A model generated the notes under the pieces. The model saw only the letters and a list, made by a program, of their open reading frames with translations. It did no database searches and was not told where the DNA came from. The position numbers were made by a program, and so were the translations under genes. Below are positions 13,543 through 63,797 of a DNA stretch of 64,000 nucleotides, in pieces. Position 1 is the stretch's first letter. The number at the start of each line of letters is the position of its first letter. The DNA comes from Dictyostelium discoideum (Eukaryota), in NCBI GenBank assembly GCA_000004695.1, contig CM000153.2:1248001-1312000 (forward strand), in the 5' to 3' direction.

Positions 13543-14994
13543 ATGAATATAAAACTATATGAATTTATAATAAATCCAACAGTCCAAATTTTATTAGTTA
13601 ATGGTGGTGAATTAGTTATTCAAGATAATAATAGTAAAGTTTATTTAAAAGGTATATCAATGGATCAAAGTTTTTTAATACTTTTAACAAGTTTTTACTT
13701 TTTTGGATATACAACTCAAAGTGAACCAAAATTCGATAGTAAAGTCAAATGGTTAAAGGGTAAACTATGTAAGATTCAAAAGAAAATGATAACCTTAAAA
13801 TTAAATATATCAAGTAGAAGTCAAATCCTAATGGAATCAATTCAGGTTTTAAAACAAATAGATCCAAACGATTTAGTATTAAGTAGATTATTCGTTAAAT
13901 TTAATGATGAAGAAGGAATTGATATTGGAGGAATTTCAAAAGAATGGTTTTCAAATTTTAGTGAAGAGTTGGCCAATACTCCATTAAATGGTTATCATTT
14001 ATTTCAAGAATATTCAAATAGTAATAAATACCATCCATCACCTTTCTCAAATTTAATACCAGACTATAGATCAATCTTTAAAACTTTGGGTAGAATTACA
14101 GGTAAATCTATTATAGATAGTATCACCAAAGCTGATAGACACTTTTCACTTAGATTCACCCCAATCTTTTATAAAATGATCTTGGGTGAAAAAATAACTT
14201 TAGATGATTTAGAATTAATTGATCCAGAACTATATAATAATAAAGTCAAATTAATTTTAAATACTCCAATGAATCAAGTTAATGAAATATTAGGTGAACC
14301 ATTATGTTTTGTTTGTGATATTTATAATCAAAATGAATTATTAAAAAGATCATTAAATAATAATAATAATAATGATGAAGATAATAATAAAATTGAAAAT
14401 AATAATAATAATAATAATAGTGAATTTAAAATTCAAATTATGAAAACTATAAATTTAAAACCATTTGGAAATTTAATTAGAGTTACAGATGATAATAAAT
14501 TAGAGTATTTAGAATTATGGGTAAATAGTTTATTTTATAATGGTGTTAAAACTCAAATCGAAGAATATAGAGAAGGTTTATTTCAAATGATACCACATTC
14601 AATTTTATCAATTTTCAATTGGAAAGAATTAGAAATGTTAATTTGTGGAAGAGAAAGAATTAATTTAGACGATTTGAAGCAACATTCTTCATTCACTGGT
14701 TACTTTAATCAAACACTAATCGATGAATTTTGGTTAATTGTTAACGGTTTCAATGAGGATGAAAAGAAATCATTAATTAAATTTGTCACTGGTTCTTCAT
14801 CGGTTCCATTGGGTGGTTTCTATCAACTTTGTCCTCATTTCACTATTAATTTAACACCACCAATTCAAAATGGTGTAAATAGATTACCAATATCTCACAC
14901 TTGTTTCAATAGATTAGATATTCCAATTAATTGTTTATCTTTTAAAAATTTAAAACTAGCAATCACTGAAGGAGATGGTTTCTCTTTGGTTTAA
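13543..14994 (+). CDS. Small HECT-domain E3 ubiquitin ligase (about 130-aa N-terminal part + HECT)
   Basis: Track ORF 483 aa. ...FNDEEGIDIGGISKEWFSNFSEEL...LIRVTDDNKLEYLELWVNSLFYNGVKTQIEEYREGLFQMIP...KFVTGSSSVPLGGFYQL...LPISHTCFNRLDIPINCLSFKNLKLAITEGDGFSLV* is the canonical HECT domain. The catalytic Cys is in HTCFNRLDIP, and the protein ends a few residues after (A/G)F. Confidence 0.75.
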   Translation: MNIKLYEFIINPTVQILLVNGGELVIQDNNSKVYLKGISMDQSFLILLTSFYFFGYTTQSEPKFDSKVKWLKGKLCKIQKKMITLKLNISSRSQILMESIQVLKQIDPNDLVLSRLFVKFNDEEGIDIGGISKEWFSNFSEELANTPLNGYHLFQEYSNSNKYHPSPFSNLIPDYRSIFKTLGRITGKSIIDSITKADRHFSLRFTPIFYKMILGEKITLDDLELIDPELYNNKVKLILNTPMNQVNEILGEPLCFVCDIYNQNELLKRSLNNNNNNDEDNNKIENNNNNNNSEFKIQIMKTINLKPFGNLIRVTDDNKLEYLELWVNSLFYNGVKTQIEEYREGLFQMIPHSILSIFNWKELEMLICGRERINLDDLKQHSSFTGYFNQTLIDEFWLIVNGFNEDEKKSLIKFVTGSSSVPLGGFYQLCPHFTINLTPPIQNGVNRLPISHTCFNRLDIPINCLSFKNLKLAITEGDGFSLV

Positions 14995-15092
14995 ATTAAT
15001 TTTATAGATTTAAAAAAACAAAAGAATAAATAAATAAATAAATAAATAAATGGAAAAAATATTATTATTATTTTTTAATTTGGTTTAAATCT

Positions 15093-15133
<41 letters not shown>

Positions 15134-15488
15134 TTTAAAAAAGATCATGATCAGTATTTGAGATCAATATTTCTGATTGAAATTTTTATATCTTTTTTTT
15201 TATTTTTTTTTTTTTTAAATTATATTTCTCTCTTGGATTTTATTTGTTATTATTTTCATTATTTACTTTGTCCTGGGCAAAAAAAATAAAAATTTAATTT
15301 TTTTTTTTTTTTTTTGGTTGTGGGTGAGATATTTTTTTTTTTTTATTTTAATATTAAAATAATAAAATTTATTTTTTTCGATTTCTTGACTTTTTTTTTT
15401 TTTTATTTTTTTTTTTTATTTTTAAACATTTATATATATATATATTTTTTTTTTTTTTTACAATTTGTCATTTGTTATTGTTTAGTTT

Positions 15489-17251
15489 ATGGCATTAAAA
15501 TATAATGATATTGAAGAAAGGGAAGAAATCAAGGATGATTTAGATAGATATGTTGATGGTGCATCTAGTGAAAATAATAATAATAATAATGTAATAATAA
15601 CATCTTCAGTAGAATATAAAGATATAAATGATAATTATCAAGATGTTAAATTAAATGATATAAATAATAATAGTAATAATAATAAAAGTAATAATAATAA
15701 TTATAATAATAATAGTGATGATTATTATATAAATAAAAGTATAATATCAAGATTATATTATTTTTTTAAAGATCAACCATCATCATTGTATAATACAATT
15801 CATTGTGCAATTGGTTTTCTTTTTATATTTTTAGGTTATTCCCCAACTCAAAGTTTAATAACAAATTTACACGAAAATAATGGTTCTATTGGGTTAGGAT
15901 TACTATATTTTTCATTTGCAATTGGTTGTTTTATAGCACCAGTAGTTTTAAAGAAAATTGGGTTAATGTAAGTAAGAAAAGAATAATATCTTTATTTTTT
16001 TTAAATTTATTTAAGTTTTAAAATTTTTTAACATATGTCATCTGATGAAATTAAAAAATAAAAGTAAATCTTTAACAATAGCAGGAATAACATATGCAAT
16101 TTTTATATTTTGTTCAATTACAGGTGTGAGTGTATTGGAAGGATTGTTTTTACCAGCATCAATATTGATTGGATTCGGTGCTGGTTTATTATGGACAAGT
16201 CAACCAGTTTATGTTTCAAGAAATGCACCAACTGAAAAAGAGTTGGGACTTTATTCAGGTATGTTTCAAACGGTTTATTCAATGGGTTCAATCGTAGGAA
16301 ATGCTATTAGTGGTACCTTACAAAATCAAGATGTAGATCCAACAATCATTTTATTGATTTTAGGTTCTTCCACACTTTGTGGTTGTATTTTATTAGCATT
16401 CTTAAGAAGAGTTGACCCAATTGTACCAACACCAAGAAAATCTTTCTCAAAAACATTTACTGGTGCATTTATGGTATTTAAAGATAGAAAATTTCTATTT
16501 TTAATTCCATTATTAATTGTACAAGGTCAATCGTAAGTTTTTTTTTTTTTTTTAAATTTTATAGTATATACTAATTTCTTTATTTTATAGTCAAAGTTAT
16601 TTTTATGAAACATTTAATGGTATAATAGGATTAGGTAGAATTGGTTATATTAGTGTTACAATGGGTATTGTTTCAGTTATTGGTTCAAGCGTTTGGGGTA
16701 GAGTTCATGATAAATTGAAAAATGGTAAAAGAATATTAGCATTGATAATGGGTGTTTTATATTTATTATCATTGACATTATTATCAGTGGCATACTACTT
16801 TGATGAAATTCCAATGTTTTATGTAATAGCTGCATTGAATGGTTTATTTGACTCTTTGCAAACAATTTTAATTTTTGTTACAATTGCTTCTCTTTATCCA
16901 AATGATAATGTTTCTGCATTTTCTGCATCAAGATTTTTAATGTCAATTTCAACGGGTATTGCTTTCTTTGTTTTCCATTATCTCAATTTCTTTGTAGTAA
17001 TATTTTGGATTTTAGCTTTATTAATTGTTGCTGAAATTTGTTTCCATAATTTACTTCAAGATATAAAATCAATAGTTAAATTACCAAATGATGATGATTA
17101 TGATACTCATACTGATATAAATAAATTTAATCTTCCAAATCAAAATTACAAAAACAATAATAACAATAATAATAACAATAATGAAGATGGTTATGAATTA
17201 GAATATGATGATACTGAAAGTAATTTATCATATGATGATAATAAAATTTAA
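15489..17251 (+). CDS. Polytopic membrane protein, UNC-93-like / MFS-type; join(15489..15967,16065..16532,16591..17251)
   Basis: Three track ORFs share one reading path. Exon 1 ends ..GL(M) with GTAAGT at 15968. Exon 2 (acceptor aaaataaaag at 16064) ends ...IVQGQS with GTAAGT at 16533. Exon 3 follows the ttattttatag acceptor at 16590 (tatactaat branch-like motif upstream). Multiple hydrophobic helices (GLGLLYFSFAIGCFIAPVVL, AIFIFCSITGVSVLEGLFLPASILIGFGAGLLW, ...). Tail is acidic and N-rich. Exon 1/2 phases fit only with the 16064 acceptor. Confidence 0.5.
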
Positions 17252-40744: not shown

Positions 40745-40795
40745 AAAAATAAAATAAAAAATAAAATAAAAAATAAAAAAATTAATTAATTAAAA

Positions 40796-40945
40796 AAAAT
40801 ATATTCTTTTAACAGATATTATTTAATACTCATAGATATCATATAAATAATTAAATAAAATAAAAAAATTAAAATAAATTTGATAATTAAAAAAAAAAAA
40901 TATATTAATAGATATTATTTAATACTCATAGATATAGGGATGATA
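40796..40945. repeat. Direct repeat (about 45 bp: ..atat[t/a]..agatattatttaatactcatagatat..) x2, 100 bp apart, just 3' of the YeeE-like gene
   Basis: 40797-40845 aaaaaatatattcttttaacagatattatttaatactcatagatatc. 40896-40945 aaaaaaaaaatatattaatagatattatttaatactcatagatatag. Confidence 0.8.
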
Positions 40946-41306: not shown

Positions 41307-44300
41307 ATGAGTATAATAAAATTTAATAATAATAGTTTATTTTTATTAATATTTTTATTATTCCATGTTTCATTATCTCTCTCGGCTTTTGACCAACAAC
41401 AACGTAACCAATCAACACTCACTTTCGTTTTTTCAATTTTCTTTTTTCAATTTTTTCTAATTTTTATTTTTTTTTTATTTTTATTTTTAGAAATATCTAT
41501 CGATACACTTATAGGTGTTTATAATTTACCTCCTATAGAAAATAATAATTATTGTGGATTACCAGATAATTTCAAATGTGATATAAATCAAACCACTATA
41601 TTATCAATGTTTGTATTTAAATTATTCTTAGATTTAATTTCATTAAATAATTATTAATTATTGATTATTAAAAAAAAAAAAAAAAAAAAAAGAAATTTAA
41701 GTGGTTCTGAAACAAATAAACCAGTTTTTCCCGATCAAATAATCGGAACATTTAAAAATGTTTCTGAAATTAAAATTTCAAATTCTAATGTCTCATTAGA
41801 TTTTTTTAAAGAATACCCAAATACTTTGTCTACTTTGACATTAGAAAGTTGTGGTATTCCAAATTTCCCACCATCACTAAAAACTTTAAAAAATTTATAT
41901 ATGTACGATTTACTTTTTAGTGGTAATATAACAACAACTTCAATTAATTTTTTAAGTATATTGTAGGTTATTTTTTATTATTTTTATTATTATTTTTTAT
42001 TTATTATTTTATTTTTTTTTTCCTTTCCTTTATCGTTTATTTATTCTAATGAGGAAATAAACTTTTAATATTTTTAATAAATTTTTTAATATTATTTTAT
42101 TTTTTAAAAAATAAATTATCATTTATACTAATAATAACTCTTTTTTTTAAATAGTAAATTAAAATATTCATCAAGTGATCTAATAAGTGATTACCAATTT
42201 ATAAATGATGGTAATAGTGGTGCTACAAAAACCCAAGTAATTTATGAAATAACGATGAACAATATTCATAAATTTTCTAAAAATTCTTTTGCTGAAGTGT
42301 ATGTTCTTTATTTTCTTTTATTTACTACCAACTACTACTATCATTACCAATTATTAATATTATTAAATATAATTTAGAACAATTATTTTAGGAAAATATT
42401 TCAATCCTGATGGTTTAGTAAATTTACAAACAATAAATTCAGCAAAGTTAACAATGATTGATATTGGTCATTTTAATATGCCTATGAATGTGGATGGTCT
42501 TTTCACTTTTAATGGAGCTCAATTAAATTTTAAAAATATTCATTTTAATTTACCAAATGATAAAGATAATTTAGATTTCACAAATAGTACAAAACTATTT
42601 ACTCAAATGGAAATTAATAATTGTACTGGTTTAATAAATTCAACTGGTGATTTAAGAGTTTTACTTAGTAGTGGTATTAAATTTTTGTAAGTTTCTATAT
42701 TTATTATTTTTTTATATATTTTATTTTTTTAAAAAAACTAATTAATTATTATTATTATTATTTAGAGGAATTATAAAGTCAAATTTAATTAAATTACCAC
42801 CATTATCATTTTATTATGGTAAATTAAATGTGTTTGGATTAAAAGGTAATAGAATTACTGGATCATTACCAGATATACCAGAACCAAATGATAAACAACA
42901 AACCATTACACTTGATTTCTCTGAAAATTTATTTACAGGTTCAATACCGCAAAATTATTGTTATCATTATGTGAATATTTCAAATAATTTTTTAGATGGT
43001 CAATTACCAATGTGTTTTATTTGTATATTAAATGATTATTATTTAAGATCGATTGTTGATAATAATGATTTCCCAAATTTTAGCAGAGGTTCAATTAGTA
43101 ATTTCCCACAATGTACTGGTATATCATTTTCAAGTAAATTACCAATTACATCGGGTGGTAATAGTATTGTAAATGGTACAAATTTTGGTTGGAATTCTTT
43201 AAATCCTAAATATTCTCCATATTCAATTACATCAAATCCAAATTTAGATTTATTACTATCAATTCCAAATAAACAAATTTCCATTGGTGTTGTATCATAT
43301 GAAGAATTTGAAATTTTTAAAAAAACAAATTTCACAAGTAATGTTTTCTTTTCAATTCCAAACATTACAATTAAAGTAGAATTGGATGTTTTAAAGCCAG
43401 TGATTAAAGAAGTTCGTTCTTATCCATATTTTAATTCAGGTTATGGTTTTATGATTCTTGGTACTGGTTTCTCTTATCAATCAGAATCTTCATCACAAAC
43501 TATTGTAACATTTGGTAATTATAAATGTTCTTTGGTTTCATCTAGTGGTAATTTCATTGAATGTATAGTTTATGAAAAACAATTGGCCGAAAGAGTTTAT
43601 ACCATTACAGTGAATAATAATCAAACTTTTCTATCTGGTGATTATCAATTTAAATTCCAAAGAACTTATCCATACATTACTGCTATTAATCCACCAACTA
43701 CCAATGGTGGTGTTGTAGTGGTTTTTGGTAGTTATGGTCCAAATCATACAGTTGTTGATCTATTGATTGGTCAACAACAATGTAATATAGAAACTATGAA
43801 TTCATCGGTTATCATATGTTCAATTGGTGGTGGTTCAGGTGTTCAAAATATAAGTTTAACAGTTGATGGTGTAAATTGGTTTGGACTTGAATATTTTAGA
43901 TATAAAGATCAAGAATTGACATGTCCAGGTACACCTCCTTGTAGTGGTAATGGTGATTGTTTAAATGGTTATTGCGTTTGTGATGGTGGTTTTGGTGGTG
44001 AAATTTGTAAACAACTTTTCACTGATGATCCTGTAGTTAGAAGGAATGATACCCTAACACAGATGATTAAGAATGGTTATTCATTTGGTTTTTCAATTAC
44101 AGATATTAGAGAAATTGATTTCAATGGTAAAACAGTTAGACAACATAATTTCACAAGTTGGTCATTAACGCCAGATTCAACCATTTTGAAATGGACTTAT
44201 GTAAATTACTATAGTGGTGGTGGTGAACAAAATTCAATCATTTCATATACAATTGAACAAATTACAGGTACAGCAAAAACTTTTACATTTGCAGGTGAAC

Positions 44301-44881
44301 AATTTACACTTCAACCTGGTTCTTTAAAATTATCAGCAAACATTTCAAATTGGGAATATTTAGGACCACTTAATACTCTACAACTTCAAATTCAATCATC
44401 AGTTAAAGTAGATGCAGCACAAGATGAGAATGAATGTCATCAAAAATCAAATATCAATTCAAATGGTGATGGTGTATCATTAAATTATATTACTATTCAA
44501 AAAGATAAAAATGTATTCAGTGGTAGATTCATTGATAAGGTACTCTCTGATGGTAGACCTACCTTTTCAAAAGTTTCAATCTCTGAACAAACAGAAGATT
44601 CAATCACAGTTTCAATATCATTACCTTATTGTAAAGAATGTTTAATTGACCCTGATTTCTCTGTACTTTTATCTCAAGATGATTCAATCAATTCTTGTGG
44701 TGGAAGCTCTTCAAGATTAAAATGGGTAATACCAACAAGTATTATCTTGGGTTTATTAGGTATCATTGGTATTGCAATTGGTGCTTATTTCTTACTAAGA
44801 AATAGACTTTATGTATCTCGTTCTGGTGTAATTGTTTTAAAAAAATCAACAAAGAGTTCTTCTGATTCTTCTCGTGCTTAA
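41307..44881 (+). CDS. Type I membrane receptor-like protein: signal peptide, leucine-rich repeats, TIG/Ig-like beta-rich region, EGF-like module (CSGNGDCLNGYCVCDGGFGGEIC), TM, short tail; multi-exon (tandem paralog A)
   Basis: Exon 1 MSIIKFNNNSLFLLIFLLFHVSLSLSAFDQQQ (donor gtaacc). Exon 2 ISIDTLIGVYNLPPIENNNYCGLPDNFKCDINQTTILSM (donor gtttgt). Then LRR exons (..KISNSNVSLDFFKEYPNTLSTLTLESCGIPNFPP.., ..LDFSENLFTGSIPQNYCYHYVNISNNFLDGQLPMCFIC..). The large last exon 42830..44881 ends ...KWVIPTSIILGLLGIIGIAIGAYFLLRNRLYVSRSG.. Internal exon boundaries were not all resolved. Confidence 0.5.
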
Positions 44882-45217
44882 AAAAAAGACAAAAAAAAAA
44901 AGATAAAAATAAATAGATATTTATTTCAATCACCCAAATCGATTTTGTGGTATTTTTTTTTTTTTTTTTTTTGGATAAAAAAAAAGTAGAAATTTCTAGC
45001 TCGGAATAGTGAAAAGTTTTTTTTTTTTGCATTGTTCTGTATAACCTTTAAAAAATGTTTGGAGGTTTTTTTTAAAAAATTCCAATAAACAAATAGATAT
45101 TTTCTTAGATATTTTTTTTTTTTTTTTTATCGAAAAACAAAATATTTTTTTTTTTTTTTTTTTTATTCTCTATTTTCTTTTTTTTTTTTATTTTTTTATT
45201 TTTTTTTAAAACACAAA

Positions 45218-45540
45218 ATGAAATTTGGGACTTTCTTTTTATTTTTATTTTTGTTTATTTCAATTTCATCATGTGAATTACCTTTAAAAGAAAGTAAGAT
45301 TTTTTATTTCACCAACATTCCCCAAAAAAATTATTCTAATCACAAAAAAAAAAAAAAAAAAAAATTTAAAAATTGATAGAGCAAGCAATAGATACTTTAT
45401 TACAAATATATGGTTTAAATTTAATAAACGGTGATTATTGTGGTTCACCCCAATATTTTGTGTGTAATTTTGAAAACACAACGATTACAGAAATGTATTT
45501 ATCAATTTTTAATTTTAAATAATTTAATACCCATCATCCC

Positions 45541-45572
<32 letters not shown>

Positions 45573-46138
45573 CTTTCAATAGTTCATTAAGTGGTAATGA
45601 AATTAATAAAACTATTTTCCCAGATGGAGTAATTGGTAATTTTAGTTTTATAAATAAAGTAAAATTATCAAATTCAAATATCTCAAATGCTTTTTTTAGT
45701 GAATTACAAACCACAAGAAATTTTCAATTTGATAATTGTTTTATTCCAAAATTTCCAACATTCCTCCCCTATGTCCAAGTATTATATATGAATGATGTAT
45801 TTTTTAATGGTAATATAAATTATTCATCATTTTCAGCTATCGGTAATTTGTAATTATTATTATTATTATTATTAATATTATTATTTATTAAAATTATTGT
45901 TTTAGATTCCTAACATTTTTTTTTAATTTTTTATTATTTTTTTTTTTAAAAAAAAAGTACATTGATTTATTCTTCAGGTGATTTAATGACAGATTATCAA
46001 TTGATTGATGATTCACCACTTTATTTTGTTATTTCAAACATTAAAATCGTATTAAATAATATTATAGATTTTCAGTATTCACTTCAAAAAATGTAAATAT
46101 TTAATTATTATAAATAACAACTATTTTATTCCTTTTTT

Positions 46139-46176
<38 letters not shown>

Positions 46177-46573
46177 AAAAAAGAGAAATTTATTTAGGAA
46201 AATATTTTAATAATAGTGATAGTTTTAGAAATATGAGCTTCACTGGTGGCCCAATTTTCATTAGTGATTTGTACTATAATAAACCTATCGAAATTACAAA
46301 TTTAATTGGTCAAAGTGTAATATTAAATTTTGCTAATGTCCAGTTTAGTTTACCGGATAATAGCTACATGGATTTTACTTTCCATTTGGTTAGTTCTTTG
46401 TTTGTATTATTATTTTATTATGGTTATTTTGTTTTTAAATTTTTTTTTTTTATTTTTTTTTTTACTAATAATAAAACCACATCAGAATTTTTACTAATTG
46501 CTCAGGATTAACAAATTCAAATGGTGATTTAATGATAAAAATAGGAAGTGTTAAAACTTTGTAATTATTATTA

Positions 46574-46643
<70 letters not shown>

Positions 46644-46648
46644 TTTAA

Positions 46649-46679
<31 letters not shown>

Positions 46680-48843
46680 AGAACAATAACCAATTCGAAA
46701 TTAAAAAAGATACCTCCATTTTCATTTTATAAAACTTTATCTTCATTGGATATTAGTAAAAATAATATTATAGGTCAGATACCTGAATTATATGAACCAA
46801 TGAATGCATCACAAATAATTGGTATTAATTTAAGTGGAAATAAAATAAGTGGTGAATTAAATCAAAATCATTGTTATCACAATTTAAATATATCCAATAA
46901 CCAATTAACAGGTAAACTTCCAATGTGTTTTATATGTCAATTAAATGATCCACTATTAAGATATAGAATAAATGGAAATAATTTTGAAAATTATATTAGT
47001 AATAGTGAAAATAATTTTCCAATTTGTTCAGGCATATCATTTATTGGGGATGCTTTGATAGAAGTTGGAACAACTAATTCATTTATTAATGGAACTAATT
47101 TAGGATGGGAATCTATATATTATAGTATTCCAGGACAAATATTAAGTGATCCATTGGGATTATTTTTTTCAGTGGAGATTCCAAATAAAGTTTTAAGAAT
47201 TTCAGATCCAAAAAAATTATTCCCAATTGATAAAGCAATTGTGAATTTCGCAATTCCAAATATAAATGTTACAATGCATTTTAAATACTCTGAACCAAAA
47301 GTATATGCTATTACAGTGTATCCATATTATAATCTTGGTTATTTATTTTTAATTAATGGTGCTTCATTTCCATCCCAAAATAGCACTTCCTCAAGAGTTT
47401 CTGTAAAATTTGACAATTTTGATTGTGAACCAACAATAGTTGCCGGTATTGTTATTGAATGTATTGTATATAAATCTCAGTTAGCTGAAAAAATCTATAC
47501 AGTATCGATAACCAATGAACAAACTAGAAAAACTGGTTTTTCTAAATATAAATTTGAAAGAGTTTATCCTTTTGTTTATGCATATAGCTCACCAACGAAA
47601 ATTGGTGGTGTTGTAACATTTTTTGGAAGTTATGGGTCAGTCTTTACCAATGCAACTATTAAAATTGGAAAAGGTACATGTGAAATTATCAATATAAACT
47701 CAACAGTAATTACATGTAACCTAGCAGGAGCTAATTCAATTGGTCCAAGTCCTGCAAATGTTAGTATAACAATTAATCAAGTTAATTGGTTTGTAAATGA
47801 TTATTTCATTTATAATGAAGATAATATATGTCCAGGAACACCAGAATGTAGTGGCAATGGTATTTGTTTTAGTGGTTATTGTGCATGTTCAAATGGTTAT
47901 TCTGGTATTAAATGTGATAAAAGTAAGTAGTTTATTTAATTAATAATTAATAAATAATTAATATAATAATAATAAAAATAAATATTAATTTTTATTTATT
48001 TATTTAATAGTTTTTACAGGCGATATAGAGGTTAAAAAGAATGATACTTTAACAGAAATGATAAAGAATGGTTATTCATTTGGTTTTTCAATTAGAGATA
48101 TTAGAGAAATTGATTTCGATGGTAAAACAGTTAGACAACATAATTTCACAAGTTGGACATTAACACCAGATTCAACGATTATGAAATGGACTTATGTAAA
48201 TAAATTTGAAAATTCAATCATTTCATATACAGTAGAACAAATTACAGGTGCACCAAAGAATTATACATTTGCAGGTGAACAATTTACACTTCAACCTGGT
48301 TCTTTAAAATTATCAGCAAACATTTCAAATTGGGAATATTTAGGATCACTAAATACTCTACAACTTCAAATTCATTCTTCAGTTAAAGCTCAACAAGAGA
48401 ATGAATGTGAACAAAAATCTGAAATTCAATCAAATGGTAATGGTGTATCATTAAATTATATTACTATTCAAAAAGATAAAAATGTATTCAGTGGTAGATT
48501 CATAGATAAGGTGGTTTCAGATGGTAGACCTACCTTTTCAAAAGTTTCAATCTCTGAACAAACTGAAGATTCAATCACAGTTTCAATATCATTACCTTAT
48601 TGTAAAGAATGTTTAATTGATCCTGATTTCTCTGTAATGATCAATCCAAATCCAATATTTAATCCATGTGACAATGATCAACCTTCTAATTTAAAATGGA
48701 TTATACCTGTTAGTGTAATATTAGGTTTGTTAGGTTTGTTTGCTATTTTTGTAATAGTTTTCTTTTTAGCACGTGATCGTATTTATATCTCTAAAAAAGG
48801 TGGAATTATTTTATTAAAAAAACAAAAAAAAACATCAACATAA
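45218..48843 (+). CDS. Tandem paralog B of the LRR + TIG/EGF-like receptor-like gene; multi-exon, last exon 48010..48843
   Basis: MKFGTFFLFLFLFISISSCELPLKE|GTAAGA; ..EQAIDTLLQIYGLNLINGDYCGSPQYFVCNFENTTITEM|gtattt; LRR exons at 45580..45851 and 46685..47930 (..LDISKNNIIGQIPELY..NISNNQLTGKLPMCFICQLND.. EGF-like CSGNGICFSGYCACSNGYSGIKC). The C-terminal exon is about 90% identical in protein to paralog A (MIKNGYSFGFSI[TR]DIREIDF[ND]GKTVRQHNFTSW...), whereas the N-terminal parts are only 30-40% identical. A 30-unit (TTA)n lies in an intron at 46571-46650. Confidence 0.5.
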
Positions 48844-49287
48844 AATAAATAAATAATTTTTTAAATTAAATTTGAATTAAATACAATTTATTGATTTTAT
48901 TATAATAAATAAAAATCTTTTTTTTTTTTTTTTTTGTGGATATCACGATTGTTGATCTTTATAAAATTTTTTTATAATAATTAAATTAAAAAATCCTTTT
49001 TTTATTTTATTTTTTTTTTTATTTGCAGTGTTTATAAAAAATCTTTTTTTGTTATGGAATTATCAAGAGAACAATTTTTTTATTTTTTTTTTATTTTTTT
49101 ATTTTTTTTATTTGTGTTTGAAAATTCAAAATGGAAAAGTCAGTAGAAATTTTATTTTTATTTTTATTTTTATTTTTATTTTTTTTTTTTAGTCCATTTT
49201 TTTTTTTTTTTAAAAAAGATTTTTTTTTTTTTTTTTTTATTTTCATTTTCTGCAGTAATAATAAAATCAAATAAAAAAAAATATAAA

Positions 49288-50315
49288 ATGAGAGTATTAT
49301 TATCATTAGTTGTAATTTTATTCATTATAAATTCAGCCTTTGCTGTAAAGATTAATATTGGTCGTCCAACCAAATCACATAAAACTATCCATCACGAAAC
49401 TTGGGTAGAAGAACAAACTGATCAATTCGATAATATTAAAGTTGGCCAATTATTAGGTTTCAAGAGAAGTCCAAACAGACCAAAACTTCAAATTAAATCT
49501 TATGATCCATTAGGAGTTCAAATTCCAACTTCTTTCAATGCTCAAACCAACTGGCCAAATTGTACTACCATTAGTCAGATTCAAAATCAAGCAAGATGTG
49601 GTTCTTGGTATGTTTTTTCATTTATTTTTATTTTATAAAAAAACAACAACAAAAAATATATATGCTAATATTTATTTACATTTAAAAAAAATATTTTAGT
49701 TGGGCTTTTGGTGCTACAGAATCAGCTACTGATCGTTTATGTATTCACAATAATGAAAATGTTCAATTAAGTTTTATGGATATGGTTACTTGTGATGAAA
49801 CTGATAACGGTTGTGAAGGTGGTGATGCCTTCTCTGCATGGAATTGGTTAAGAAAGCAAGGTGCTGTATCAGAAGAATGTCTTCCATATACAATTCCAAC
49901 TTGTCCACCAGCTCAACAACCATGTTTAAATTTTGTCAACACTCCATCATGTACTAAAGAGTGTCAATCAAATTCCTCTTTAATTTATTCTCAAGACAAA
50001 CATAAAATGGCTAAAATTTATTCTTTCGACTCTGATGAAGCAATCATGCAAGAAATTGTTACTAATGGTCCAGTCGAAGCTTGTTTCACTGTCTTTGAAG
50101 ATTTCCTTGCTTACAAATCTGGTGTTTACGTCCACACAACTGGTAAAGATTTAGGTGGTCACTGTGTTAAACTCGTTGGTTTCGGTACCTTAAATGGTGT
50201 TGATTACTATGCCGCTAACAACCAATGGACAACTTCATGGGGTGATAATGGAACTTTCTTAATCAAACGTGGTGATTGCGGTATCTCTGATGACGTTGTT
50301 GCTGGTTTACCATAA
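49288..50315 (+). CDS. Cathepsin B-like papain-family cysteine protease; join(49288..49607,49700..50315) = 311 aa
   Basis: Signal peptide MRVLLSLVVILFIINSAFA. Exon 1 ends ..QARCGS with GTATGT at 49608 splitting the active-site Cys codon. Acceptor attttag (49699). Exon 2 CWAFGATESATDRLCIH... with occluding-loop-like Cys-rich segment, ..GGHCVKLVGFG..NQWTTSWGDNG (His/Asn region). Confidence 0.75.
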
Positions 50316-59907: not shown

Positions 59908-60002
<95 letters not shown>

Positions 60003-61325
60003 GTTATTATTATTATTATTATTATCATTATTATTATTATTATTATTTTCCAATTTTTGAGGTGATTGTTGTTGTTGATTTTTATTAATATGATTAGTAT
60101 CAAAAGCTTTCATTCTATCTTTCATTTCTTGCATTTTTGTAAAAATGAATTTATGTTCTAAATTATCTTTTTCTTCTTTTGTTAAATTTAAACCAGCCAA
60201 ATTTAATTTCTTTGAGATAACTTTAAAAATACCATCTATACTAAAGTTAAATCTTTTATAGAAATCAACCATATGATTCTCAATAAATTCTCTAATAAAA
60301 ACTTGTTCTAAAATTTGTTGAGTTGAAAATCTTGATTCTGGATTCTTATTTAATAATTTAAATAATAATGAACTTAATTCTTCATTGGGACTGAATTTTA
60401 TTTTTTAAAAAATAATATCAGAATGTATTAATATTAAAAATAAAAATAATATTAAAATAGTTGAAAAAAACACACTTACTGATTAACTGGTTTAAATATA
60501 GTAGATTCAGTTTGAATGTTTCTCATTACAGTTTCTTTTCTACCATCAAATGGTAATGATAAGGTCATTAATTCATATAATACGACGCCTAAAGACCAAA
60601 TATCCGTTTTGTTAGTGTATGGTTTTTTATTACATATTTCGTAGGAAACATATTGTGGAGTACCAGCAGTTGTATTTGCGTATAGATCAGTTTCAGACAT
60701 TAATTTTGAAACACCAAAATCTGCAATCTTTAATAACGGTATTGAATCATTACTACTACCACTACCACTACCACTACCACTACCACTATCACTACTTGAT
60801 AAAACTATATTCTTTGGTTTTATATCCCTGTGAATTATATTTTGTGAATGAATATAATTTAATGCAATAACTAATTGACAAAAGTAATGCATAATTTCAA
60901 AATCTGAAAATGGTTTACCACTTCTTTTTTGATTTTCAATTTTTTGAAATAAATCTCCATTCTCTGCAAATTCCATTATAATTACATAATTACCATTCTC
61001 AAAGAATGAATCATTCAATTTAACCACATTAACATGATCCATCACTGTTAAAATTTTACCTTCTTCTAATACTTTTTCAATATTCTCTTGATTATTTACT
61101 TGTATTGATTTTTTACAAAATACTTGACCACTTTCTTTGTGGGTAACTATTATTATTTTAATTTTGATTTTTTAAAATTAATTTAAAATACTAGGGAGAA
61201 AAAAAAAAAAAAAAAAAAAATAGTTTCTAAACACACAAACCTTTAAATGTATTTCCATATGATCCTGATCCAATTTGACTTTTTATTAGGTACTTATCTG
61301 CTGGAGAGTTCTTTTTTTTAATCAT
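59685..61325 (-). CDS. Ser/Thr protein kinase, NEK-like catalytic domain + C-terminal domain with 50-residue poly-Asn; complement(join(59685..60390,60480..61146,61241..61325)) = 485 aa
   Basis: Exon 1 MIKKKNSPADKYLIKSQIGSGSYGNTFKG (GxGxxG), donor GTTTGT. Exon 2 (acceptor aataatag 61147) VTHKESGQVFCKKSI...MDHVNVVKL..HRDIKPKNIVL..(SG)n insert..KIADFGVSKL...GTPQYVSYEICNKKPYTNKTDIWSLGVVLYEL (NEK-type activation/P+1 region), donor GTAAGT at 60479. Exon 3 (acceptor aaattcag 60391) HPNEELSSLLFKLLNKNPESRFSTQQILEQVFI... then (AAT)n. Confidence 0.7.
59911..60047. repeat. (ATT)n, about 45 units, imperfect (coding poly-Asn on minus strand of kinase gene)
   Basis: Direct reading. Confidence 0.9.
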
Positions 61326-61697
61326 TGTTTTTTTTTTTTTTTTTTTTCAAAAACAAAAAAGCCAAAAAAAAAAAGCGAAAAATCTTTTTAACCAAAAAAA
61401 AAAAAAATAAAAAAACAATTCAATTTGGCGAACTCGATTACTGAGAGAAAACAAAAAAAAAAGAAAACTGTTTTATTTATTTTTATATTTATTTATTTTT
61501 TGATATTTATATTTATATAATTTTATCAACACCAATTTTTGAATTTAAAATTTCTAATCTATCCTTAAATCTTTCTTTTCTTATTTTGTAATTTTGAGTA
61601 AAACTATATATATTAAAAAAAAAAATATATATATATATTTATTAATAACTTTTAAAATAAAAAATAAAAAATAAAAAAATTAAAAATTAAATTATAA

Positions 61698-63425
<1,728 letters not shown>

Positions 63426-63759
63426 TTTTATTTATTTTGTTATTATTTTAAACTTTATTACTATTTTTTATTTTTTTTTTATTTGTTATTTAATATTAAA
63501 AGATATAATTGTTTTATGAATTTATTTTTATTTACTTTAATTATTATTGTTATTATTTTTTTTTTTATATACAAATGTTATTAAATAATATTTATTAAAA
63601 AGAGATGAATTGAAATTATTATTATTTTTTTTTTTTTATTATTTATTTAATTTTATTTTTAATTTTATTTTTTATTTTTTTGTAATTTATTGTTTTTGGT
63701 AAGTTGTTAATTAATTTATAAATTTACAGCTATTGTTATTTGCTACCCAACATTACAAA

Positions 63760-63797
<38 letters not shown>

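Follow-up and report, generated by a model that had tools for sequence, protein, structure and literature searches.

Among the systems described in social amoebae, the closest to the gene pair analysed here is comC. The protein it encodes carries EGF domains, a signal peptide and a transmembrane (TM) helix and is confined to the group 4 dictyostelids (PMC4931340), and aggregation is aberrant in a comC mutant (PMC2873529 Table 1, citing Kibler et al. 2003). The comC family is defined by the Pfam models ComC_SSD (PF22933), LRR_ComC (PF24141) and Beta-sand_ComC_2nd (PF24143). In the tgr family the ectodomain consists essentially of IPT/TIG repeats, without leucine-rich repeats (LRRs) or a supersandwich domain (SSD), and genes of the tgrB1/tgrC1 type show exceptional intraspecific polymorphism with positive selection. 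Clusters of plant LRR receptor-like proteins of the Cf-9/Hcr9 type have variable N-terminal LRRs and a near-identical C-terminal part. The tgrB1 and tgrC1 products are type I surface proteins with IPT/TIG domains and belong to a family of exposed proteins that has expanded in a lineage-specific manner (PMC4931340 Table 4). Our subject is a tandem gene pair, A (DDB_G0283993) and B (DDB_G0283995), in a 64,000-nucleotide (nt) window of Dictyostelium discoideum contig CM000153.2; positions are those of this window unless another sequence is named. On the evidence of their domain matches both genes are members of the comC family, and recurrent, ongoing, short-tract interlocus gene conversion between them, restricted to the SSD, is strongly supported. 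The genes and the block shared between them are as follows.

41307-44881, plus strand: gene A (DDB_G0283993), predicted comC-family type I membrane protein of 1017 amino acids (aa), 5 introns
41307-41403, 41491-41608, 41693-41962, 42155-42298, 42378-42686, 42766-44881, plus strand: exons of gene A
44036-44665, plus strand: homogenised block in A, encoding the SSD (A aa 737-946), found by blastn, repeat families and synonymous divergence (dS)
45218-48843, plus strand: gene B (DDB_G0283995), predicted comC-family type I membrane protein of 985 aa, 7 introns
45218-45293, 45380-45494, 45583-45849, 45958-46092, 46184-46399, 46486-46560, 46682-47922, 48011-48843, plus strand: exons of gene B
48031-48636, plus strand: homogenised block in B (B aa 716-917), starting 20 nt downstream of the intron 7 acceptor and stopping before the stalk and TM helix

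The two genes stand head-to-tail on the plus strand with clean GT..AG splice models, and both encode, in this order, a signal peptide, LRRs, TIG beta-sandwiches, one EGF domain, the ComC SSD, a TM helix and a short tail. An original prediction made from the sequence letters had described them as two tandem receptor-like paralogs with LRR and TIG/EGF parts, which is borne out by the splice models, the deposited proteins and the Pfam matches. The domain set and its order (signal peptide, LRR_ComC, TIG/beta-sandwich, EGF, ComC_SSD, TM) are the same as in comC. Unlike comC, A and B are separate paralogs whose domain-limited concerted evolution and B-only introns are properties of the pair itself; concerted evolution of this kind, seen in A/B and in a pair from D. 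purpureum, is not a described feature of the comC family. A literature search on comC together with lagC found nothing. With the Cf-9/Hcr9 clusters the pair shares a tandem arrangement, a variable LRR head, a homogenised membrane-proximal part and LRRs of the plant-specific type. However, the homogenised module in A and B is the SSD and not LRRs, the TM helix and tail lie outside the block, the organisms concerned are not related to each other, and nothing points to a role in immunity.

The divergence between A and B is mosaic. By blastn the sole strong nucleotide match between the genes joins 44036-44665 of A with 48031-48636 of B at 89.1% identity over 632 nt, an alignment with two in-frame indels and abrupt edges on both sides, and families D9, D11 and D12 of the repeat scan cover the same SSD block. 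A sliding comparison gave 25-56% aa and 48-71% nt identity from the N-terminus through the EGF domain (38-45% aa for the LRR, TIG and EGF parts), 80-98% aa and 89-95% nt in the SSD, and about 43-48% aa and 57-59% nt in the stalk, TM helix and tail that follow ...LIDPDFSV. The dS between A and B in the window is 0.166 in the SSD versus 0.85-0.96 in the flanks, with 0.89 in the tail. Mosaic divergence with strongly diverged signal peptide and LRR exons had been predicted, and the blastn and sliding comparisons agree with it, divergence along the pair not being uniform. The same prediction held the C-terminal exon (beta-rich domain plus TM helix) to be about 90% identical; this is correct for the SSD and fails for the stalk, TM helix and tail, as the block stops at ...LIDPDFSV. 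An assembly artefact was rejected as the source of the pattern, because six independent assemblies share the mosaic and keep paralog-specific differences.

The pair was compared in these six genomes, two of D. discoideum, one of D. cf. discoideum, two of D. citrinum and one of D. firmibasis, from which twelve coding sequences were built. Within every one of the six genomes the dS between A and B is 0.12-0.35 in the SSD versus 0.83-1.70 in the N-terminal LRR (N-LRR), TIG/EGF and tail segments. The SSD values are 0.17 for D. discoideum, 0.13 for D. citrinum and 0.35 for D. firmibasis, all below the dS of 0.50-0.64 between orthologues of D. discoideum and D. firmibasis. In neighbor-joining trees, the A and the B sequences form two distinct clades in each of the three flank segments at 98-100% bootstrap (98% in the tail), whereas in the SSD tree A and B of D. 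firmibasis join at 100% and those of D. citrinum at 90%; the SSD sequences of the D. discoideum group still fall into A and B sub-clades. Site patterns divide in the same way. In the SSD, 45 sites are concerted, meaning that A and B share a species-specific state, versus 8 that are paralog-specific, as compared with 47 versus 419 in the flanks and 1 versus 56 in the tail. Twenty-seven sites are fully concerted, with one state common to A and B in every species group and different states in different groups. Silent-site similarity of the paralogs thus exceeds that of orthologues within a delimited tract whose trees are incongruent with the flanks, as is characteristic of concerted evolution.

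Differences between strains point the same way. Strain differences that occur in parallel in A and B were found in the SSD at three sites in D. discoideum (the window versus contig L001) and at six in D. citrinum (L003 versus L004), where about 0.2 and 0.5, respectively, would be expected if they were independent by our own arithmetic from site counts; the flanks gave none among about 2,300 sites. Seven of the nine parallel changes fall on third codon positions. Low dS, species-wise clustering of A with B and parallel strain differences are all confined to the SSD, which is why domain-limited conversion is strongly supported, and partial gene conversion, one of the two causes originally proposed for the mosaic, is the one that these data favour. 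Conversion between tandem paralogs is a well-known process, and databases already contain the family and both genes; the new element is the record of domain-restricted concerted evolution in the comC family and its recurrence in D. purpureum. A literature search on gene conversion in Dictyostelium tandem paralogs found no relevant paper.

In D. purpureum a tandem comC-family pair that is unrelated to A/B (GL871187.1, L009 9482-11140 versus 13692-15569) has a similar mosaic. Its SSD block is 93-100% identical in nucleotides, with about 480 nt lacking any difference, and its upstream part is 45-60% identical. There is no intron at the EGF/SSD junction of this pair, and identity falls off more gradually through the EGF domain. 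As this pair has the same mosaic, SSD-centred homogenisation is not unique to the A/B locus. A third SSD gene lies just upstream of the D. purpureum pair (about 5236-7092 of L009).

Could the SSD simply be the most conserved domain, kept similar by purifying selection with no exchange of DNA between A and B since the duplication? The SSD has the lowest omega (dN/dS) of all segments in orthologue comparisons, 0.09-0.22 as compared with 0.28-0.71 for the head and 0.10-0.44 for the tail, and it is recognisably conserved across the comC family. However, selection on the protein cannot reduce synonymous divergence five-fold (dS of 0.17 versus about 0.9), does not cluster A with B of one species and cannot yield parallel synonymous strain differences in both genes, so we regard this explanation as hardly tenable. 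A single ancient swap of the SSD before the species split, followed by independent descent of the copies, would account for block borders that are identical in all six genomes and for the A and B sub-clades that persist in the D. discoideum group. As a sole explanation it is contradicted by the monophyly of A+B in the SSD of D. firmibasis and of D. citrinum, by the 27 fully concerted sites and by the parallel strain differences, all of which require exchange after speciation, and we consider it very improbable. A founding swap followed by later conversions would be compatible with the data.

The second cause originally proposed was diversifying selection on the ligand-binding LRR part. Under this explanation the mosaic would be driven by selection on the LRR/TIG head, as in allorecognition, and the SSD would be similar only by contrast. 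The omega of the head is indeed several times that of the SSD, the B head evolves about twice as fast as the A head, and between the two D. discoideum genomes, the only two on which these values rest, the B head has a dN of 0.043-0.054, a dS of 0.06-0.085 and an omega of 0.64-0.71. Mismatch between the same two genomes is 4.5-7.8% in the B ectodomain versus about 2-3% in the upstream neighbours, and some 60-codon windows have an omega above 1. Yet none of the segments (N-LRR, TIG/EGF, SSD, tail) exceeds 1 in the orthologue comparisons, the windows above 1 do not recur consistently from one species pair to the next, and several genes downstream of B, at 5-6% mismatch, are as diverged between the strains as B. 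Flank dS is near saturation, so that the divergence of the head is largely a matter of age and not only of selection, and low SSD dS and species-wise clustering would be left unexplained. We therefore regard diversifying selection as an unlikely driver of the mosaic. The dN/dS analysis proposed per exon, run here per segment, places the head above the SSD and no segment above 1, which leaves diversifying selection on the LRR part undemonstrated; the rate of the head agrees with a relaxation of constraint, perhaps together with positive selection at some sites, and does not amount to evidence of an allorecognition-type system.

A resemblance to polymorphic allorecognition receptors had also been suggested, without an assignment of the genes to the tgr family. 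Like tgrB1 and tgrC1, A and B are adjacent paralogs encoding type I surface proteins with IPT/TIG domains, and the B ectodomain is relatively fast-evolving. They differ in carrying LRRs, an EGF domain and the SSD, in matching ComC models and in their head-to-tail order on one strand; their segment omega values are below 1, and between the two D. discoideum genomes the divergence of B is about 2-3 times that of its neighbours. The ectodomain is not TIG-only, the Pfam profile of both proteins being dominated by ComC_SSD and LRR_ComC. Neither by domain content nor by arrangement are A and B tgr genes, and the resemblance finds no support as family membership.

Two introns of B have no counterpart in A.

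46400-46485, plus strand: intron 5 of B, 86 nt, GTTTGT...ATCAG, phase 2, in the LRR region
47923-48010, plus strand: intron 7 of B, 88 nt, GTAAGT...AATAG, phase 1, at the EGF/SSD junction

An intron at the EGF-to-beta-domain junction of B, with A reading through, was part of the original prediction; it is present as described, at 47923-48010 and not at 47930-48015. Its site in A lies uninterrupted inside codon L730 (44015/44016). Intron 5, which the prediction had missed, belongs to the deposited DDB_G0283995 model, and its site is read through in exon 5 of A (about 42600). Retention of intron 7 would lead to a stop two codons in. Among the genomes the splice sites of the intron are conserved while its length changes, and not every length is divisible by three. 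With the annotated acceptor, CDK-IFTG-DIEVKK of B aligns gap-free to CKQ-LFTD-DPVVRR of A, so that, compared with A, intron 7 appears as a clean indel. All six genomes also keep a further in-frame acceptor AG, which ends 9 nt downstream at 48019; the acceptor pair at 48002-48019 reads AATAG, then TTTTTACAG, then G, and the alternative would change K-IFTG-D to K-S-D (three residues). Within those 9 nt D. firmibasis differs at two places, both of them third codon positions in the annotated frame, and this suggests that the upstream AG (48010) is the acceptor used. The acceptor at 48019, which would give a 982-aa protein, was dropped, as the deposited models use 48010 and this choice is gap-free against A.

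Every one of the six B orthologues has both introns and none of the six A orthologues has either, as the comparison across strains and species showed, so that the difference, real as it is, is not the recent gain or loss it had been taken for and is older than the split of D. discoideum and D. firmibasis. For its polarity we used other members of the family. The site of intron 7 is uninterrupted in six outgroup comC-family genes (P0006, P0007, P0015 and three D. purpureum copies), and the closest outgroup, P0006, also reads through the site of intron 5 (L006 2499-2795) and has the other intron positions in common with the pair. Outside the SSD, A and B are sisters at 99.5% bootstrap with P0006 as outgroup. 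Introns 5 and 7 are likely gains of the B lineage, acquired after A and B had arisen by duplication but before D. discoideum and D. firmibasis parted, since this takes one gain each, as opposed to at least two losses for intron 5 and at least three for intron 7. The reverse, a precise loss in A by recombination with reverse-transcribed mRNA, would agree with the dominance in Dictyostelium of precise losses, which are biased away from the 5' end (PMC4683709), and with the location of the intron 7 site in the 3' third of the gene. However, losses by the cDNA route tend to take adjacent introns together, and A keeps the intron between the two sites (intron 6 of B, intron 5 of A). P0006 lacks both introns yet has the other positions, five further family members lack intron 7, and the sister relation of A and B raises the number of events as counted above. 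Loss in A is accordingly the less probable course. No source for the gained introns, such as duplicated flanking exon sequence, was seen by eye, and repeat scans gave only low-complexity AT-rich matches; after such time the source sequence is probably unrecoverable. Few intron gains have been confirmed in this lineage (PMC4683709), and the pair contributes two polarised candidates. Within intron 6 of B an (ATT)30 microsatellite at 46564-46653 fills most of the intron and is followed by a T25 run, and in the six genomes the intron as a whole measures between 70 and 199 nt.

Taken together, it is highly probable that A and B arose by an old tandem duplication within the comC family and exchanged the SSD repeatedly as the flanks diverged, with the B-only introns most likely gained in the B lineage. 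After the duplication the two genes diverged to near synonymous saturation everywhere outside the SSD block of about 630 nt, and this block has passed repeatedly between the loci through short-tract interlocus gene conversion. Exchanges took place separately in each of three lineages, those of D. firmibasis, D. citrinum and D. discoideum, and they go on among present-day strains. Several points weigh against this account. In the SSD tree the A+B clade of the D. discoideum group has a bootstrap of only 17%, and six paralog-fixed sites persist inside the block; homogenisation is therefore patchy, and partial in the D. discoideum lineage. In Dictyostelium 441+202 intron losses stand against 98 putative gains, a prior that disfavours gain (PMC4683709). 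Splicing of the B introns is predicted from sequence logic and the deposited gene models, the action of intron 7 as a conversion barrier is one that we infer, and so, from family membership, is the function of A and B. By homology to comC, A and B may be receptors for cell-cell communication or adhesion during development, in which the ligand-binding head would differ between the paralogs and the membrane-proximal module would be common to both.

All six genomes place the borders of the block at identical residues, and its edges are sharp at the nucleotide level. Conversion depends on sequence identity, and the limits of the tracts may lie at domain borders because the diverged flanks fell below the identity that conversion requires. 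Constraint on the SSD would preserve this identity and conversion would in turn maintain it, and the faster-evolving head and TM/tail would drop below the threshold and escape. At the 5' edge, the 88-nt B-only intron is a heterology 20 nt from the block and probably sharpens the border. The conversion tracts have kept to a protein-domain border since before D. discoideum and D. firmibasis split, and conversion is still active among strains. One consequence is that SSD-based trees of the comC family will mislead; another is that the SSD is marked as a constrained, probably shared-function module of an uncharacterised receptor family of group 4 dictyostelids.

A stronger claim would be that SSD-restricted homogenisation is a selected property of comC-family tandem arrays, with the SSD as a "constant region" kept matched between neighbours. 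Neighbouring receptors would then pair through the SSD or dock on one shared partner, leaving the LRR/TIG heads and the TM/tails free to specialise, and social amoebae would have receptors with a variable head and a constant stem maintained by conversion. The D. purpureum pattern and the identical borders in three lineages are compatible with this claim and with passive identity-dependent conversion equally, and we think a selected property improbable. The value of these findings is modest and mainly evolutionary and annotational, with no change to the understanding of any pathway.

Membership of A and B in the comC family was assigned from Pfam matches. ComC_SSD (PF22933) matches A at 1.3e-46 (159.5 bits) and B at 1.8e-46 (159 bits), in both over nearly the full profile and against a cutoff of 24 bits. 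LRR_ComC (PF24141) matches B at 28.3 bits (cutoff 27) over profile positions 6-288 of 288; in A of the window it is below the reporting threshold, and the A orthologues P0004 and P0005 have precomputed PF24141 matches. The domain search suggested for IPT/TIG returned TIG matches of 40 and 27.5 bits (cutoff 20.9), with two matched TIG stretches per protein. EGF_Teneurin matches B at 25 bits (cutoff 24.3) and an EGF match was found in A too. A signal peptide and a single TM helix (type I topology) were read directly from the sequences as a hydrophobic N-terminus and one hydrophobic helix after the SSD. The segments beyond the block are as follows.

44666-44881, plus strand: stalk, TM helix (about 44723-44800) and cytoplasmic tail of A, paralog-specific, not converted
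48637-48843, plus strand: stalk, TM helix (about 48697-48775) and cytoplasmic tail of B, paralog-specific, not converted

In a sequence search of PDB the best matches were to the plant-type LRR proteins FLS2 (7.8e-08) and TOO MANY MOUTHS, with a reelin EGF match as well, and no match covered the SSD. GLMP (glycosylated lysosomal membrane protein, PDB 8r8q_B) and the galactose-mutarotase-like supersandwich domains of glycoside hydrolases and phosphorylases resemble the SSD at the level of the fold only, with 5-12% sequence identity. Word-indexed protein searches yielded few members of the comC family (7, 6 and 9 matches) and are not a full census of it.

The translation of gene A is identical to the deposited protein KAM9943178.1 (P0008) and that of gene B to DDB_G0283995 of strain AX4 (P0020). 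Projecting the structure of A onto the five other genomes gave proteins that match the deposited ones residue for residue. The AX4 model of DDB_G0283993 (994 aa, P0011) differs from ours only at exon 1/intron 1 (41307-41490), where another first donor removes residues 10-32, the hydrophobic core of the signal peptide. The deposited models of the five other genomes agree with the 1017-aa version that includes the signal peptide, so intron 1 is probably mis-spliced in the AX4 model, a likely error that should be flagged. Both genes are annotated as hypothetical proteins, and a literature search on DDB_G0283993 and DDB_G0283995 found no paper on either gene and no phenotype or expression record.

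The surroundings of the pair are conserved on one side. Upstream of A, synteny (purC/E, an S9 peptidase and a sulfur transporter) is kept in all six genomes, and it breaks directly downstream of B (about 48850-49300). There, B is followed by a Peptidase_C1 gene in D. discoideum and D. cf. discoideum (starting at about 49289 in the window), by a cytochrome P450 and a polyketide synthase in D. citrinum (L003/L004 17587-19198), and in D. firmibasis by an inverted segment that matches 59951-63774 of the window (L005 19448-23595). Over 23 kb the window and L001, both labelled D. discoideum, have about 2-3% coding differences, rising to 5-6% in several genes downstream of B. A coding divergence of 2-3% is high for strains of one Dictyostelium species, and L001 may represent a divergent lineage. 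The window has a composition of about 22% GC. About 400 bp upstream of the start codon of A, at 40752-40935, a 96-bp unit is repeated in tandem (1.9 copies, 84% match) and includes a core that is not of low complexity, ACAGATATTATTTAATACTCATAGATAT; this repeat could be a duplicated promoter element or a remnant.

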